A DNA stretch of 64,000 bases from a virus (IMGVR_UViG_3300028171_000090:96001-160000); one strand, 5' to 3'. Shown: positions 3,449 to 58,469, counted from the stretch's first letter. The notes: a model not told the origin generated them from the sequence alone. Program-made: numbers and translations.

Positions 3449-3486
3449 TATAAAACTAAAATAATTAGACTAAGGGAGAAATTAAA

Positions 3487-17756: not shown

Positions 17757-18260
17757 ATGGGAACACAGCCACATTTATTAAAATTGCTTTCTTCAAGTAC
17801 AGACTTAAAGGGGTTAGTATTAACTATTGCTCACGATGAGATAATTGCTATGATCCGTCGTGAGATTGCAGGTCATGTAAGGCTTACAGAATATGATAAT
17901 ACTAAGTCAGTCACAATTGCATATAATGATGGCGAATCAGGGGAGATTACTCATTGCTTTACTGGTCCATTAGAAGTATTAGAGTTTATAAAAGCAATGG
18001 AAACAAAGAACAATGAATTTGTCGATAACTACCGCTTTGATTTAATTGGAGCCAATGGTACATTCCAACCTATGAAAGAAGAGTTTGTCATTCATAGTTT
18101 AGGTACAGATAGCCTGTCTATTGCCTATCGTGCAAAAGATGGGGTAGCTAGTATCAAAGGACTTAAACCAAATCTATTTACTTCTAGACGATTAGGTACA
18201 GGAGGATTTAGAAACTTCCATAACATAATCGTTGATGCGGCAACCGATAAAGATTTGTAA
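17757..18260 (+). CDS. Hypothetical protein, paralogue of 17053..17709
   Basis: GAGGGAG RBS; shared motifs as above. Confidence 0.75.
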   Translation: MGTQPHLLKLLSSSTDLKGLVLTIAHDEIIAMIRREIAGHVRLTEYDNTKSVTIAYNDGESGEITHCFTGPLEVLEFIKAMETKNNEFVDNYRFDLIGANGTFQPMKEEFVIHSLGTDSLSIAYRAKDGVASIKGLKPNLFTSRRLGTGGFRNFHNIIVDAATDKDL

Positions 18261-18267
18261 TAAATGA

Positions 18268-18300
18268 AAAGGAAGCGAATTAACGCTTCCTTTCTTTTTT
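18268..18300 (+). terminator. Intrinsic terminator
   Basis: AAAGGAAGCG-AATTAA-CGCTTCCTTT plus T tract. Confidence 0.8.
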
Positions 18301-18336
18301 TGTCTATTTTACTCTTACATTACCCAACATTATTAT

Positions 18337-18436
18337 AATCGGAAAATATTCCGAATTTCCTCCTCAGGTATATTATTGTACTTAGACTATGGACAAAGAA
18401 AGTGGTATAGGCGCTCAGCCTATACCACTCCTTTTT
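18337..18436 (+). ncRNA. Candidate small RNA with anti-Shine-Dalgarno seed
   Basis: AACA-N6-TA at 18326-18337, 5' hairpin TCGGAA-AATA-TTCCGA, TTCCTCCTCAGG (18357-18368), 12-bp terminator and CCTTTTT; lies between convergent terminators. Confidence 0.4.
18401..18429. terminator. Bidirectional terminator
   Basis: AGTGGTATAGGC-GCTCA-GCCTATACCACT with T-rich tails on both strands. Confidence 0.8.
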
Positions 18437-19529
18437 ATCTCGAATACATAACCTCATAAACCGTACCTAATCTGTCACGTGCAATTCCTTTATCTTTATC
18501 GAATTGAATACGTCCAACAGAGTCTCTATCTGGTAACGGATGATCATCTAACACTTCTCCTAAAGCGTTAACCGCTTCGAACTCCCATCTTTCTGATGGT
18601 AACCATTTACGGATAACAATCTTAATACCAGTATCACCTTCATAATGGAATGCTTGCTCATTGTCTGTTAAGACAATATCTTCAGCCTCAACGAGCTGAT
18701 CGAAGCGTGCATCAATCATATCATCGAAATCCTCTTCACCCAAGTCTTCCAATGCAATTTCATCTTCAGGAATACCGAAGTTATAATTCGGGTCTTCTTC
18801 CAATTTCTTTTTCTTCTTCTTTTTCTTCGTTGTAACGGTAGGTGTATCAGTATCCATTAATTGAGCAAATGCTTGGTTGATTAAGAATTCATCACTAGCA
18901 CCAGCTCCACCCGCAGCGTTACCTTCTTTCGCTTCTCTAGCCGCACGTTTAAGCTCAAGGTCAGAGATACTTTTATTAACAGATGTAATCTCTTTTACGA
19001 TACTTAACTTTGTATTTACTAGTGAAGCTAAGTTAGATGTTTGGTTCGTAATAGCTGTTAAGTAGCCTCTATAATGAGGTGTCTTTTTCAGCATATCTAA
19101 GAATGCTTGACCATCTTCTGTCATATGATTAATATTTTTAAGTAGGTCGCGTAGCATCATAATGGAGCCATCGAAACGTTGTTCGTAGAAGTCTTCTGCA
19201 CTCTTATCTGCTTTTGTTGCAGGTACAGGAGTTCCACCACCACCTTCTCCAAATATATCTTTATTTGTTCCACTCATCTCGTAAAGTGCTGATATAGCAC
19301 TTTGACGTTTCTTACCGCTTTTTTTCTTCTTCGATGGTTTCTCTTTCTTTTTTTTCTCTTTTTCTTTTTTATCTTCGTGCATTTTATCTCGTATACGAGT
19401 ACTAGCCATTAGGCTATTTAAGATTGCTAAGTCCTTATCATTTTCTTCTTTATACACGCTTGGTATAGAAGTAGGTAACTTTTGTGATTTGGGTTCTACA
19501 CGTTTTACCTTTGCTATTCTTAATTTCAT
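18435..19529 (-). CDS. Hypothetical charged protein (Lys tracts, coiled coil, acidic patch), divergent from DNA polymerase N gene
   Basis: GAGGAGG RBS; N-terminal KLRIAKVKRVEP motif shared with RNAP beta tail. Confidence 0.8.
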   Translation of the reverse strand: MKLRIAKVKRVEPKSQKLPTSIPSVYKEENDKDLAILNSLMASTRIRDKMHEDKKEKEKKKKEKPSKKKKSGKKRQSAISALYEMSGTNKDIFGEGGGGTPVPATKADKSAEDFYEQRFDGSIMMLRDLLKNINHMTEDGQAFLDMLKKTPHYRGYLTAITNQTSNLASLVNTKLSIVKEITSVNKSISDLELKRAAREAKEGNAAGGAGASDEFLINQAFAQLMDTDTPTVTTKKKKKKKKLEEDPNYNFGIPEDEIALEDLGEEDFDDMIDARFDQLVEAEDIVLTDNEQAFHYEGDTGIKIVIRKWLPSERWEFEAVNALGEVLDDHPLPDRDSVGRIQFDKDKGIARDRLGTVYEVMYSR

Positions 19530-19541
19530 ATATATTCCTCC

Positions 19542-19605
19542 TCTACGTATATAATATATTGTTTTAAGTTTAACATTCGTCTTAAATATATATTATCTAA
19601 GTGAA
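19542..19605. promoter_or_regulatory. Back-to-back early-type promoters
   Basis: Minus: AATATATTATA-TAC-GTAGA (19542-19560); plus: TATATATTATC-TAA-GTGAA (19587-19605). Confidence 0.6.
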
Positions 19606-19675
19606 AGAGAAAAGACTTGAAATTGAAAAGGAGGGAAACACTTCATTAACCGAGAATAAAGGGAGGAATTTTAAT

Positions 19676-27385: not shown

Positions 27386-28135
27386 TTATACTTTAATAAG
27401 TTCTTCTACTGGTGTGTAAGCCTGACTTCGATTGTGTCGAGTACGGTTAATTGATGATGTTACCATAGAATCTAAGTCCTCGAATGTCAATGCTGTGAAC
27501 GTTGAGTTCATTGAACATACCGTACGGTTATTAACACCTATGTAGTCATATACAGATACATTCGGATTCTTACCAATCTCTAAACGGAATGGTTTCGCAA
27601 TATCTTTCTTCGAACGAGATAACTCTGAGATAATACAAGACATTAGTGTGCCTGGAACTTGTAGGTTAACAGAGTTTAATTCTAAGTTACGAATCATGAT
27701 ATTTAATAACTGGTCGTAAGGAATCGTTCTAGGAATCTTTCCATCATTCAGCATCTTAATAAATGCTTCTACATTATCAATCGTTGCGATAACGTTTGTA
27801 GAAGTCATAACGACATCACCGTTAAAGTATTTTAATACATAATACTTCTCTTCTTCATGACCAGGAATTAATGTAAGTGTTTCCTTCTCAATGATATTCG
27901 GCTTCGTAATCATCTTACAAGGAACGTTGAACGTTTTTAATTTAGAGAAATCTCTCTTGTCAGTGGGCTTATTCATCACACAGAAGTTGAATAATCCCAT
28001 CGTTTCCACTTTCTCTCCTATAACCGTGGCAATACCCGATGAGAATAAACTATCAGGAATATAGACTTCTAAGTAGCCACCAGTGAAGATTAACTTCTCA
28101 TCTTTCTCTGCAAAGTAAGATGGTTTTGTCTTCAT
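27386..28135 (-). CDS. Probable small RNAP beta-prime C-terminal subunit (virion RNAP)
   Basis: NLELNSVNLQVPGTLMSCIISELSR and STFTALTFED echo beta-prime C-terminal helices and the SALVSLSFER motif of 49455..51440; late promoter upstream. Confidence 0.5.
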   Translation of the reverse strand: MKTKPSYFAEKDEKLIFTGGYLEVYIPDSLFSSGIATVIGEKVETMGLFNFCVMNKPTDKRDFSKLKTFNVPCKMITKPNIIEKETLTLIPGHEEEKYYVLKYFNGDVVMTSTNVIATIDNVEAFIKMLNDGKIPRTIPYDQLLNIMIRNLELNSVNLQVPGTLMSCIISELSRSKKDIAKPFRLEIGKNPNVSVYDYIGVNNRTVCSMNSTFTALTFEDLDSMVTSSINRTRHNRSQAYTPVEELIKV

Positions 28136-28167: not shown

Positions 28168-28170
28168 ACG

Positions 28171-28262
28171 AAAATAAAAGTGAGTAGAACCCGAAGGTTC
28201 TACTCGTGCTTAATCTCATGGATACATGATAATACAAACTAGACAGAGGGAAGATTTCCCTT
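28171..28262 (-). ncRNA. Candidate small RNA (or long structured 3' UTR)
   Basis: AACA-TATTTA-TA at 28273-28262, hairpins AGGGAA-ATC-TTCCCT and TCATG-TATC-CATGA, UUCG terminator GAGTAGAACC/GGTTCTACTC. Confidence 0.3.
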
Positions 28263-28280
28263 ATAAATATGTTTAGTATA

Positions 28281-29468
28281 TTATTTCAATAAAGTTGCTA
28301 AGTCGATTAAGCTTTGTTTAAATTCAGCAACGTTTCGGTCTTCGTTTTCATTGTTCTCTACACACTTCGTAACGTTTACTAAGAAGTAGTTAACAAATGA
28401 AGCTGTAGACATAGTGATCTTTTTATTCTTTGTGACTTCACGGTATAATAGGTATAAGATACCTTCGATTTGACCATGGAAGCGGTTCGGAATAATTTTC
28501 TTTAAGTCTGTTAGTAAGTAACGTGGGTCTAAGAACATATTCTTCTTATCGTTCTTTACGTAACGATTAAAGTTCTTTTCTTCTTTCTTGAAGTCCTTCT
28601 TCACACGTTTCATTACAGCAGCTTTACCACCTAGGTTATGGAAACGATCAGTTAAATTGTTTAAGTATAAGCTACCATGTAGGATGTTACGTAATTCAAT
28701 TAATTGACGTTTCTTTTCAGGATCAGTTGTTTCTTCAATCTCTTTTTCCACTTTAAGAATTTCTTCTTGTGAATCAAGGTTCTTAACTAATCCAGCTAAT
28801 TCCTGATGGAATTGTTGCATCATTGTTTCTAATACTTTTTTCTCTTCCTCGATAACTTTATCAAGGTTAGTTTGAGCAACCATATACTTTAAGAAGTCAC
28901 GACGGAATTCTTCAGGTGTATGTTCTCCAACTTCACTTACAAATTTCTCAGAGTTCTGAACCATGACTGGAGGAAGGACTTTACAAATCTCTTCATCAGT
29001 CATTTCATCAATCTTTTCAGGAGTTAATCCATCAAATAATTGATTAAACTGAGCATTTGCTAATTCACCAGCAGATTTATTCTTTAAGTCATCTGGTGAG
29101 ATATATGTAATATTTGTTTGATCAGGTCGTGTAGAAACATCAGTTCCTAGTACCTGCACATTCATGTCTTGTAATTCTCTTAACATTTTTGGATCAATTC
29201 TATGGCTACCTGCTCCTGCAATTACTACAGCGTTAGATTTCTTTTCTTCTTGTGTAGCTACAATATCAGAACCAGTAATAGTAATACCGTCAGTAGAATT
29301 GATATTAGCAAGTTCAGCAGCTTCTTGTTCTGCTAATCCTTGTAGTGCTCCATCGAATTTTTCAATAGTATTAGTTAGAGCTTCTTTAAATCCAGGTTGT
29401 ACTTGGTCTTCTTTACCTTCTAATACCTGTCCTACTACTGTTTCGATTTCTTCACGTTTGTTTTGCAT
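28281..29468 (-). CDS. Hypothetical helical/coiled-coil protein
   Basis: GAGGAGG RBS, 395 aa. Confidence 0.8.
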   Translation of the reverse strand: MQNKREEIETVVGQVLEGKEDQVQPGFKEALTNTIEKFDGALQGLAEQEAAELANINSTDGITITGSDIVATQEEKKSNAVVIAGAGSHRIDPKMLRELQDMNVQVLGTDVSTRPDQTNITYISPDDLKNKSAGELANAQFNQLFDGLTPEKIDEMTDEEICKVLPPVMVQNSEKFVSEVGEHTPEEFRRDFLKYMVAQTNLDKVIEEEKKVLETMMQQFHQELAGLVKNLDSQEEILKVEKEIEETTDPEKKRQLIELRNILHGSLYLNNLTDRFHNLGGKAAVMKRVKKDFKKEEKNFNRYVKNDKKNMFLDPRYLLTDLKKIIPNRFHGQIEGILYLLYREVTKNKKITMSTASFVNYFLVNVTKCVENNENEDRNVAEFKQSLIDLATLLK

Positions 29469-29525
29469 TTTAATTTCCTCCTCGGTTTCTCTTAATTTAT
29501 GGTTTATATTTTCTTTTTCTAATAT

Positions 29526-29789: not shown

Positions 29790-30038
29790 CTAGGCACGCA
29801 TAGAAGTAGATTTGAAGTGATTGTAATCCTCTTCAGATAATACAGCTACCATACCATCATCTGTAATTACAGCATGGTCATGTAAGTCTTCCGCAGTAAT
29901 TTCTACAGCTGTAGCCATATCAATTTCATAACGAGCTAGGTAAGGAAGGTCTTCCCCATTTACCATAACCGTTGGTTCATCGTCCTCATTATAAGGTGTA
30001 ATAATATATTTGTCACAATCTTTTAATACTACTGTCAT
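29790..30038 (-). CDS. Hypothetical protein, single copy of a module shared with two neighbours
   Basis: GAGGAGG RBS; DKYIITPY..PTVMVNG...TDDGMVAVLSEED. Confidence 0.7.
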   Translation of the reverse strand: MTVVLKDCDKYIITPYNEDDEPTVMVNGEDLPYLARYEIDMATAVEITAEDLHDHAVITDDGMVAVLSEEDYNHFKSTSMRA

Positions 30039-30063
30039 TGTTAGTTCCTCCTCAGGAATAGTT

Positions 30064-30882
30064 TTATTTTTTATTTGGTACTTCTGATGGGTCTACTACT
30101 CCCGCAGCATCAGTTACTGTTGGACGAATACCCATAATACTTTCACTAGCAAGAATGAAACATTTACCGTGTGAAGTTTCAAGTCTAGGCGCTCCATCAG
30201 CATCAGGTACAAGGTGACCATCATAGAATCCACCATATCTACCTTCTACTGCATAGCGACCATTATACATTAAATGATAATGTCTGATATGTTTATCTAG
30301 CATCATTACAGTACATTCATCATTCCAAACCTTACCAACGATTAATTGGTTAGCCATATGTGTTCTGTTGAGATTAATACGATCTTGATCGATAAATACC
30401 ATGGCATCATGTGATACCATAACAGCATCCCCATAATCAGTTCTTACAATACGGCTCATTTCACTATCACCTAAGGTATCCAATTCTTCGTCAGTGATAT
30501 AACGAATAATTTCATGCTGTAAACCATCTATCAATACTTTAGGTTGAGATTTATTCCATTCATATGGCACCATTATGATATTATCATTATCTTTATGCAT
30601 CTCTTTAAGAGATACTATACACGCTTCATTGTCAGAAGCTAATACAGCTCGTATTAACGTGTAGTCGCCATGTAGCATCATAGGGATTTCCATATATACT
30701 GTGGATGTTCTCCAGTCAGTATGACGTTTCTTTAATTGCCCTTGAAGAATTTCTCCTTCTGGACTAATAACAAAATACATTCGATCTGCTCGAATTGCAG
30801 CAATATTAAAATTAGTATTAAATAATACCATATATTGTCCTGCAAAGTTTTTATACATAGTTCCTAATACTTCATGTGCCAT
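30064..30882 (-). CDS. Hypothetical protein containing the shared module
   Basis: GAGGAGG RBS before ATG 30882; DNIIMVPY..PKVLIDG...TDYGDAVMVS. Confidence 0.75.
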   Translation of the reverse strand: MAHEVLGTMYKNFAGQYMVLFNTNFNIAAIRADRMYFVISPEGEILQGQLKKRHTDWRTSTVYMEIPMMLHGDYTLIRAVLASDNEACIVSLKEMHKDNDNIIMVPYEWNKSQPKVLIDGLQHEIIRYITDEELDTLGDSEMSRIVRTDYGDAVMVSHDAMVFIDQDRINLNRTHMANQLIVGKVWNDECTVMMLDKHIRHYHLMYNGRYAVEGRYGGFYDGHLVPDADGAPRLETSHGKCFILASESIMGIRPTVTDAAGVVDPSEVPNKK

Positions 30883-30883
30883 T

Positions 30884-31648
30884 TTATTTTTCCTCCTCAG
30901 CTTGCTCAATTGCAATTTCTTTATTAGCTAGAACTGGAATACCGTTAATTGTACAGTGACCTTCAAGTTCTCTTGTAAGTTCACCAGTAACCGTTCTAAC
31001 AGATGTTTTATATGCATACGTATGACCTAATAATAGCTCATGACGTTTAACATCTGGGTTTAATTTAATAGAATCTTTATAAATTTCACCTATCATATCA
31101 ATAGGTTTCATATCAATACAGCTATTACAATATTCTGTATACTTAGCCATATCTTCGTCATTTAATAATACGTAATACCCATCATCTGAAAGAATAGCTT
31201 TATCTCCAAACATACGCTTGATATCAAGCTTTGGATTTGCACGTTCTACAGATGGATAATGGATACCTTTAATTAAGATTTGGTCAGATGGTACTGTAAA
31301 TGCACGATTACTAATCGCGATTGTACCAAGACCTTTTTCTTTAATCTTTTTAAATATATCTAAGTTACCTACAATTCTTACATATCGAATTGCATGGTCA
31401 AGTTCTAGTTTAAGATAAAGGTTTGCATCAGGATGGTCAGACTCTTTTACGAGTTTAGCTTCCGTATAGAAGTTATCTCCTGCACCTTTTTCTTTATTAA
31501 AATGAAAACTCATAATTGGGTATCTCTTACCTACTTCTAGGTCATCGATACTGATGAATTCGGCACCTTCTTTTAATGTGCATAGGTATCCTAATACCCC
31601 ATTCCATCCTGTGATTCCCAATGTTTTAATCGTTCCTACTGTTTCCAT
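30884..31648 (-). CDS. Hypothetical protein containing the shared module
   Basis: GAGGAGG RBS; DQILI...NPKLDI...SDDGYYVLLNDED. Confidence 0.75.
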   Translation of the reverse strand: METVGTIKTLGITGWNGVLGYLCTLKEGAEFISIDDLEVGKRYPIMSFHFNKEKGAGDNFYTEAKLVKESDHPDANLYLKLELDHAIRYVRIVGNLDIFKKIKEKGLGTIAISNRAFTVPSDQILIKGIHYPSVERANPKLDIKRMFGDKAILSDDGYYVLLNDEDMAKYTEYCNSCIDMKPIDMIGEIYKDSIKLNPDVKRHELLLGHTYAYKTSVRTVTGELTRELEGHCTINGIPVLANKEIAIEQAEEEK

Positions 31649-31671
31649 TCCGATTCCTCCTCAGTATGTAA

Positions 31672-58423: not shown

Positions 58424-58469
58424 GTGATATATACACTAAACACTATATATTCCTGAGGAGGAACTGGAA

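Follow-up and report, generated by a model that had tools for sequence, protein, structure and literature searches.

A 174-bp gap between two convergent genes of an uncultured jumbo phage contains a predicted small RNA of about 100 nt. We read it, with somewhat more confidence than doubt, as a late plus-strand RNA that would act in trans as an antisense molecule, occluding phage ribosome-binding sites (RBSs) of the CUGAGGAGGAAAUU type. The RNA is probably a translation brake that the phage makes for itself. It also carries a short box, a feature missed in the original prediction of a single small RNA at this place, which by its sequence and position marks it as one member of a dispersed family rather than a lone small RNA.

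Genomic setting and relatives

The window, that is the whole stretch of DNA analyzed (64,000 nt), comprises bases 96001-160000 of a 223,016-bp IMG/VR virus record (G000; 35% G+C), and positions given below are those of the window unless marked as genome or contig positions. The DNA polymerase and GroEL of G000 are 32-33% identical to those of the Bacillus phages AR9 and PBS1 and the Staphylococcus S6 group. Since these identities are just 32-33%, G000 is placed among the distant relatives of the uracil-DNA jumbo phages, and its source is an uncultured giant (jumbo), AR9-like soil phage. Uracil-DNA jumbo phages of the AR9/PBS1/S6 type are transcribed by their own multisubunit RNA polymerases.

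The gap is bounded on the left by a gene for a 167-aa protein (17757-18260, plus) and on the right by a convergent gene for a 364-aa protein (18435-19529, minus). No Pfam family was found for either protein, and the 364-aa protein gave one weak match, to a PHROG of unknown function. Megablast and tblastn against a phage collection, with the locus and both flanking proteins as queries, returned no match, and a search of viral contigs for related loci through the two neighbors and the DNA polymerase found none. The relatives used here are syntenic contigs found through homologs of the 364-aa protein, which is 88% identical in L005/L006, 58% in L008-L010, 55% in L007, 35% in L011, and 32% in L012. 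The AR9 genome is without an orthologous slot; its gene order differs, and no homolog of the 364-aa protein lies beside the AR9 polymerase.

Anatomy of the predicted RNA

Reading of the plus strand confirms the originally proposed order of promoter, 5' hairpin, anti-Shine-Dalgarno (anti-SD) stretch, linker, and terminator, and bears out, as predicted anatomy, a plus-strand unit, about 100 nt long, that runs from a late promoter to a terminator. The features of the locus are as follows.

18268-18300, plus: intrinsic terminator that ends the upstream 167-aa gene and bounds the unit on its left
18326-18337, plus: late (nvRNAP-type) promoter AACATTATTATA, an exact AACA-N6-TA, with the A at 18337 as predicted start
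18337-18436, plus: predicted small RNA of about 100 nt (promoter-to-terminator span)
about 18339-18354, plus: 5' hairpin CGGAA-AATA-TTCCG (UCGGAA/UUCCGA), from folding
18357-18368, plus: anti-RBS segment (seed) TTCCTCCTCAGG, as RNA UUCCUCCUCAGG, complement of RBS type CCUGAGGAGGAA
18363-18379, plus: second pairing segment CUCAGGUAUAUUAUUGU, a 17-nt perfect complement of the 190-aa gene leader
18382-18391, plus: family box TTAGACTATG, common to the array units
18392-18400, plus: purine-rich spacer of 9 nt between box and hairpin
18401-18436, plus: terminator with a 12-bp stem (18401-18429), 5-nt loop, and U-run CCTTTTTAT
18435-18437, minus: stop codon of the 364-aa gene, from the sequence

The predicted RNA has a minimum free energy of -36.4 kcal/mol (z = -6.8 against shuffles). 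It contains no open reading frame (ORF) with a start at SD spacing, and none whose frame is conserved in the relatives. Rfam searched at a permissive E-value with the locus gave sub-threshold noise only (sraA at 27 bits, below its gathering score of 56), nothing meaningful came from Rfam on either of the two arrays described below, and ARAGORN found no tRNA. The terminator, with stem core GGTATAGGC / GCCTATACC, also serves the convergent 364-aa gene.

The seed had been described as exposed, which holds in part. An alternative conserved stem, GGAA at 18341-18344 with UUCC at 18357-18360, may cover the first four seed bases, and the CCUCC core has a predicted unpaired probability of only about 0.5; in the predicted ensembles the seed is at least partly accessible.

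Late promoters of AR9 have the form AACA-N6-TA/G, the last base being the start site; they are read by the non-virion RNA polymerase, and some drive non-coding antisense transcripts (PMC5312081). Of the 164 copies of AACA-N6-TA in G000, 79 are intergenic, where intergenic DNA makes up 10% of the genome, and most of these intergenic copies lie 21-47 nt ahead of a same-strand start codon. Position and enrichment together mark AACA-N6-TA as a genuine promoter class in G000. Two array units, at genome 221916 and 222330, have the same promoter 13-mer as the locus, and a real gene at genome 179963 (minus) is driven by the near-identical AACATCATTATAATC. The late promoter at the locus is kept in L005, L007, L008, L011, and L012.

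Two other promoter readings were rejected. An early promoter in GGTATATTAT (plus) or on the minus strand finds no counterpart in the rigid early motif TATACATTATATAGGTGA, which is absent from both strands of the locus, and the best sigma-70 candidate (18308-18336) is a 9-of-12 match that is no better than shuffles. Elsewhere in the genome, the rigid motif TATACATTATA[TA]AGGTGA occurs in eight copies (G000:C1 positions 1380, 16443, 18387, 50098, 66755, 69807, and 94663, plus; 210958, minus), each 30-60 nt before a gene and often 3' of a late promoter. It is probably the early (virion RNA polymerase) promoter of this phage, and differs from the AR9 early consensus.

The stretch is present in 21 soil metatranscriptome runs. 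Assembled contigs (Logan) from four soil RNA libraries, some longer than 100 kb, bridge the gap; they are unstranded and come without strand, ends, or level. Three of the four libraries have contigs that break at 19526-19650, the divergent promoter region of the 364-aa and DNA polymerase genes. Such breaks, with the gap itself bridged, are at most a weak hint that the libraries hold phage RNA and not DNA.

A family of boxed small RNAs

G000 contains about 19 ORF-free units built on one plan, namely a late promoter, a variable body, a box, and a hairpin terminator. Two ORF-free clusters of late promoters lie at genome 26.9-28.2 kb (minus; array A) and 221.3-223.0 kb (plus; array B). Bodies of the array units are 45-150 nt long and end in (T)AGACTATG, with variants AGATTATG and AGACTACG, and the hairpin and T-run start 2-10 nt after this 9-10-nt box. 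The locus matches the plan (promoter, 44-nt body, TTAGACTATG, 9 nt, hairpin), and the combination of AGACTATG, hairpin, and T-run is found at both arrays, at this locus, and at 28216 (minus). By comparison, 24 copies of TTACTACA in G000 were inspected in their local context, and none (0/24) has a hairpin and T-run directly after it.

Units in the sister arrays L018 and L019, which lie beside the orthologous polyphosphate kinase gene, end in TTACTACAG/T. Orthologs of the locus carry their box in the same position, as TTAGACTATG in L005, ATTACTACAG in L007 and L090, and GTTACTACAT in L008. Judged by these sequences, the box switches between lineages in step at the arrays and at the solitary locus, and because it switches together with the arrays, the locus is a true member of the family, with the plus strand as its predicted strand.

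As in the arrays of its own phage, the unit at the locus has a late promoter, an ORF-free body, and a lineage-specific box just before a hairpin terminator. It differs from them in being solitary between convergent protein genes, 87-107 kb from the arrays, and in having a lineage-invariant hairpin, orthologous conservation, and identifiable antisense content. The array-type hairpin GAGTATAACC / GGTTATACTC (and variants) is absent from the locus, which has GTGGTATAGGC / GCCTATACCAC; since hairpins vary within the arrays, the array-type hairpin is probably not a defining feature of the family.

A second solitary boxed unit lies at 28170-28273 (minus), between two co-directional genes. It consists of a late promoter AACATATTTATA (28273-28262), a 5' hairpin AGGGAA/TTCCCT, the box AGATTAAG (28216-28209), and a hairpin GAGTAGAACC/GGTTCTACTC with T-run, and directly after it comes the late promoter of a virion structural gene (27386-28135). 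The family box is also found directly 5' of the SD in a few protein genes (2478-2488 and 3464-3474 in the window; G000:C1:2529-2539; L007:5788-5799, minus), where it reads AAATTAGACTATG/AAG in G000 and AATTACTACAG in the sister phage. The small RNAs and some mRNAs may thus share the box as a site of processing, as a second type of promoter, or as a site where a protein binds.

Array A is directly adjoined by a gene for polyphosphate kinase 1 (G000:C1:24585-26783, plus; L016:186-2384). The protein is full-length and has each of the five PPK Pfam domains; it is 79-92% identical to the copies of the sister phages and 44-57% identical to other database homologs, of which those with a name are bacterial PPKs. 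Array B is preceded by a purine- and G+C-rich stretch (G000:C1:221200-221300) with an orphan GAGGAGG at 221271.

Conservation of the locus

The unit, including its anti-SD stretch, is kept as a whole in relatives at 55-88% flanking-protein identity, and in L005/L006, L007, and L008-L010 the gap has the same size as in G000. Four lineages keep the promoter AACAT[TA]ATTATAAT (one promoter base differs), TGGAA, TTCCTCCTCAG, GGTATATT, the purine spacer, and the hairpin. Within the seed, TTCCTCCTCAG is invariant in all four, and so are 10 of the 12 pairs of the terminator stem, with a loop that varies. The purine spacer reads GACAAAGAAA, GAAAAGAAAA, AAAAGA, or AAAAGAA, depending on the lineage. The closing C-G pair of the 5' hairpin is U-A in L005, and RNAalifold retains the GGAA:UUCC stem and the terminator. 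The terminator stem of the upstream 167-aa gene has an entirely different sequence in the sister phages.

In this slot, the two most distant relatives, L011 and L012 (35% and 32%), have a late promoter, a ATTCCTCC-R-GAATTT block, a closing stem, and a terminator, and the far-side neighbor gene differs. The CUCC of ATTCCTCC lies in the hairpin loop with an unpaired probability of 0.8. Alignment of these two RNAs to each other or to the window is unreliable, and the support that they give consists of the shared ATTCCTCC-R-GAATTT in a hairpin. Among metagenome contigs, the exact pattern of seed plus GTATATT occurs in 110 stretches; of those screened, only MTEU01002083.1 has the full unit, and the others are ordinary promoter-plus-SD gene starts on the opposite strand.

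An intact minus-strand ORF in relatives, named in the original prediction as the counter-evidence to look for, was searched for, and no such ORF is conserved. The only conserved minus-strand ATG opens reading frames of 8, 16, 6, and 2 codons in the four lineages, and longer minus-strand ORFs across the seed are in different frames between lineages or absent. No minus-strand start codon stands at SD spacing (4-12 nt), which leaves the GAGGAGG at the locus an orphan.

Complementarity to phage ribosome-binding sites

The RBS complements cited in the original prediction are real. Perfect 12-mers occur at 30045-30056 and 58452-58463, 11 of 12 positions match at both 30890 and 31654, and the match at 29472-29483, whose register is shifted, is 12 nt long. 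The candidate targets within the window, all of them in silico, are listed here.

58452-58463, plus: RBS of groEL, 12-nt perfect complement
30045-30056, minus: RBS of the 82-aa gene 29790-30038, 12-nt perfect complement
30889-30900, minus: RBS of the 272-aa gene 30064-30882, 12 nt
31644-31664, minus: RBS and start codon of the 254-aa gene 30884-31648, RNAduplex -38.3, rank 2
29472-29483, minus: RBS of the 395-aa gene 28281-29468, 12 nt

Twelve of the 242 translation-initiation regions of the phage carry a perfect complement of at least 11 nt to the seed region, where 0.83 are expected when the flanks of a fixed CCTCC are shuffled (0/1000 shuffles reach 12); the same enrichment is expected if the minus strand merely copies the consensus strong RBS of the phage, so this count cannot separate an anti-RBS RNA from an RBS copy. 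GAGGAGG has 31 copies in the genome, of which 27 are real RBSs before ORFs.

The best RNAduplex energy is that of groEL (-42.3), which ranks first among the 242 leaders and among 11,146 genome windows (background mean -22.3, sd 5.0), and the 190-aa gene leader discussed below reaches -37.7 in the same scan of G000; RNAduplex with long loops overstates energies, and these scores are in-silico leads. At gene 30884-31648, CUGAGGAGGAA and UCGGAAU are predicted to pair with the seed and the 5' hairpin arm. A 16-nt RBS module, TTCCTGAGGAGGAACT, is common to groEL (58450-58465, plus), the 82-aa gene (30043-30058, minus), and a 347-aa gene just before the window (G000:C1:92952-92967, plus), and on its own can fold a 5-bp hairpin, UUCCU-GAGG-AGGAA, that half-buries the SD.

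The proposal that one operon and the chaperonin are the targets stands as far as the matches go; comparative support was found only for the 190-aa gene, which lies outside the window. Judged by complementarity, groEL and the operon of gene 30038 are in-silico candidate targets.

Co-variation with the leader of a late gene

A whole-genome search with the RNA gave a 17-nt perfect antisense match just 5' of a late gene for a 190-aa protein (genome 204318-204890, minus). This gene lies 90 kb from the locus and precedes the gene of a virion protein of about 3600 aa (peptidase/glucosaminidase). Its leader has a second match of 13 nt at the SD, making two sites of 17 + 13 nt, and the antisense of the RNA equals this leader minus 14 internal bases. 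The predicted pairing bases fall in two blocks of the RNA, CCUCC and GGUAUAUU.

Both sites recur in relatives. On the L005 contig, the leader L034 carries the 17-mer and a 15-nt SD match. In the sister lineage (contig MTEU01002083.1), the block common to the RNA L090, whose sequence is that of L007, and to the leader L152 is another 15-mer, AGTAATCAATATACC, to which the SD is added; here the RNA segment GGUAUAUUGAUUACU is complementary to the leader segment AGUAAUCAAUAUACC of the same contig, and in the mRNA 31 nt separate the two pairing blocks. Duplexes of cognate partners have energies of -36 (G000) and -42 (L005/L034) in one lineage and of -33 (first 60 nt of the L007 small RNA with leader L027) and -29 (L090/L152 of the same contig, with a shorter small RNA segment, the first 50 nt) in the sister lineage, and non-cognate pairs between the two lineages range from -24 to -29. 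The cognate margin is clear in the G000 lineage and marginal in the sister lineage; the case for co-variation rests mainly on the lineage-specific perfect matches. The seed being invariant among relatives, co-variation comes from the second site only. Drawn from two lineages, this co-variation of small RNA and leader is the strongest argument that the two pair as RNA.

In the mechanism that we propose, the non-virion RNA polymerase would transcribe an RNA of about 100 nt from AACA-N6-TA, ending at the strong hairpin terminator. The UUCCUCCUCAGG segment would pair with the SD and spacer of phage mRNAs that have the CUGAGGAGGAAAUU type of RBS, and the adjoining GGUAUAUUAUUGU with the second, further-upstream site in the leader of the 190-aa gene. 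Pairing would hide the RBS from the ribosome and so lower the translation of a subset of late genes, for which the best candidates are the 190-aa gene, probably groEL, and the 29790-31648 operon. Stabilization or processing of the mRNA are other possible outcomes of pairing.

Alternative readings

Some properties of the locus sit less easily with an antisense RNA. On its minus strand, TACA-N6-TA is followed by a textbook copy of a phage RBS; the unpaired share of the seed core is predicted at only about 50%; and the terminator hairpin is unlike the array hairpins in sequence. Three other readings draw on these and further observations. They are less probable, and fit the conservation, orientation, and co-variation less well than the antisense reading does.

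One alternative accepts a real plus-strand boxed RNA but gives it another job, the anti-RBS stretch being a relic of an inverted duplication of a gene start. Such an RNA would, like other members of the family, act through its box and hairpin as a substrate or cofactor of a box reader, or its transcription would matter as read-through antisense to the 3' end of the 364-aa gene. We regard this as unlikely. In its favor, complementarity to initiation regions is not enriched in most array units, lineages differ in the box as a set, which points to a common reader, and the conservation of the hairpin stem far exceeds what a terminator needs. The read-through form is in keeping with AR9, whose late promoters are known to drive antisense transcripts (PMC5312081), but read-through past so strong a terminator (12 bp and a U-run) should be minor. 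A relic would also not be expected to stay invariant at 55% flanking identity while the stem of the neighboring terminator is replaced, nor to follow the changes of the 190-aa gene leader.

The minus strand might itself be the functional one, either as a decayed or orphan gene start or as the source of an RNA with a strong SD (a ribosome decoy or the leader of a tiny peptide). This is quite improbable. In its favor are the use of GAGGAGG as an RBS in 27 of its 31 copies, the identity of the minus strand with the 190-aa promoter and leader save for a 14-nt internal deletion, and the resemblance to the initiation region of gene 30884-31648, with ATG changed to ATA. The upstream terminator is also terminator-like on the minus strand, but the tail CATTTATTAC is a weak T-run. 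Against this stand the missing start codon at SD spacing and the lack of a conserved ORF or frame, an orientation of the box that fits the family on the plus strand only, and a degree of conservation that is too high for a dead remnant. The TACA-N6-TA of the minus strand is barely enriched in intergenic DNA (15%), and neither L007 nor L008 retains AACA-N6-TA on the minus strand, whereas all six relatives retain the promoter of the plus strand.

Least probable of the three is an element acting at the level of DNA, in which the locus and the 190-aa gene hold two direct copies of the site of a phage transcription or regulatory protein that evolve in concert as its specificity drifts: in G000 and MTEU01002083.1 alike, the copies lie on one DNA strand as direct repeats, and in G000 the similarity takes in promoter-like bases that are perhaps untranscribed in the target, but the small RNA copy is without the 14-31 nt between the leader blocks in both lineages, which suits two-site RNA pairing better, the copy at the locus is embedded in a complete promoter-box-terminator RNA unit, and the block shared in the sister lineage is not recognizable as a promoter. 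The G000 similarity does run into the apparent AACA-N6-TA promoter of the 190-aa gene, an extension that is expected from DNA duplication and unneeded for RNA pairing.

A possible RNA-guided system

It is tempting to extend the antisense reading from this locus to the family. In such a dedicated system of RNA-guided translation control, the roughly 19 late small RNAs would carry antisense bodies against the initiation regions of phage (perhaps host) mRNAs, and their lineage-specific box would be read by a phage protein, a matchmaker chaperone or a nuclease. We offer this as a speculation that is more likely wrong than right by some distance. The anti-SD guide at this locus and an anti-start-codon guide in array B may be parts of such a system.

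The array-B unit that starts at genome 221927 has UUUUGUCAUUUUAUAAGU at L004:1064-1097 (G000:C1:221963-221996, plus), which is the antisense of a consensus start region, UAUAAAAUGACAAAAUU (also given as TATAAAATGACAAAATT). Perfect matches of 12-16 nt join this unit to the initiation regions of 10 genes in a targeted scan, with 11 hits in a 12-mer scan; examples are the genes starting at genome 170440, 111952, and 79541. Most other array units show no enriched complementarity to initiation regions.

Comparison with known systems

The c4 RNA is processed from the same transcript as its target, serves immunity, and uses two short paired stretches in the ant mRNA. In phages P1 and P7, c4 is an antisense RNA that binds complementary regions around the RBS, likely in RNA loops (PMC12197685). 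Both c4 and the RNA predicted here are phage-encoded small RNAs that block the translation of phage genes by short complementarity to the RBS region, an effect that in our case is predicted, and the two-block complementarity is reminiscent of the two stretches of c4. The two differ in that c4 belongs to temperate phages of enterobacteria and the RNA at the locus to a virulent-type jumbo phage, where a late promoter and a terminator of its own frame it, its best target is 90 kb away, it matches many RBSs, and it carries the family box, which c4 lacks.

RoxS/RsaE and the hairpins of RNAIII in Bacillota are host-encoded, use UCCC/CCCC motifs to pair with SDs, and control defined metabolic regulons. 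Likewise, the RNA at the locus would be a trans-acting molecule of about 100 nt with a C-rich motif in a loop or single strand directed against a GGAGG-type SD, and with an intrinsic terminator. Its seed differs in being a 12-15 nt complement of an extended, phage-specific RBS, and would form only about 6 bp with the canonical AAAGGAGGUGA (by inspection); no sequence or Rfam relation to these C-rich RNAs was found.

With AR9 the phage shares the promoter grammar AACA-N6-TA/G, read by the non-virion RNA polymerase, and in AR9 some late promoters drive non-coding antisense transcription (PMC5312081); it differs in about 32% DNA polymerase identity and another gene order at this place. By sequence, the RNA belongs to no described family, and full-text literature searches yielded no described small RNA family of AR9-like phages. 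For temperate phages and prophages, regulatory small RNAs are well documented; for lytic jumbo phages that infect Gram-positive bacteria, hardly any are known to us.

Implications

If the antisense reading is correct, an RNA that resembles the anti-SD of the ribosome, yet is tailored to a phage-specific RBS, would let the phage tune how its own late genes are translated, and the affected genes would include the chaperonin and the gene ahead of the giant virion protein. The locus would be the first in the boxed family for which a guide can be read and a co-varying target named, giving a handle on the family and on the reader of its box. It would also offer a natural, compact design for translational knock-down in phage-host systems of the Bacillota.
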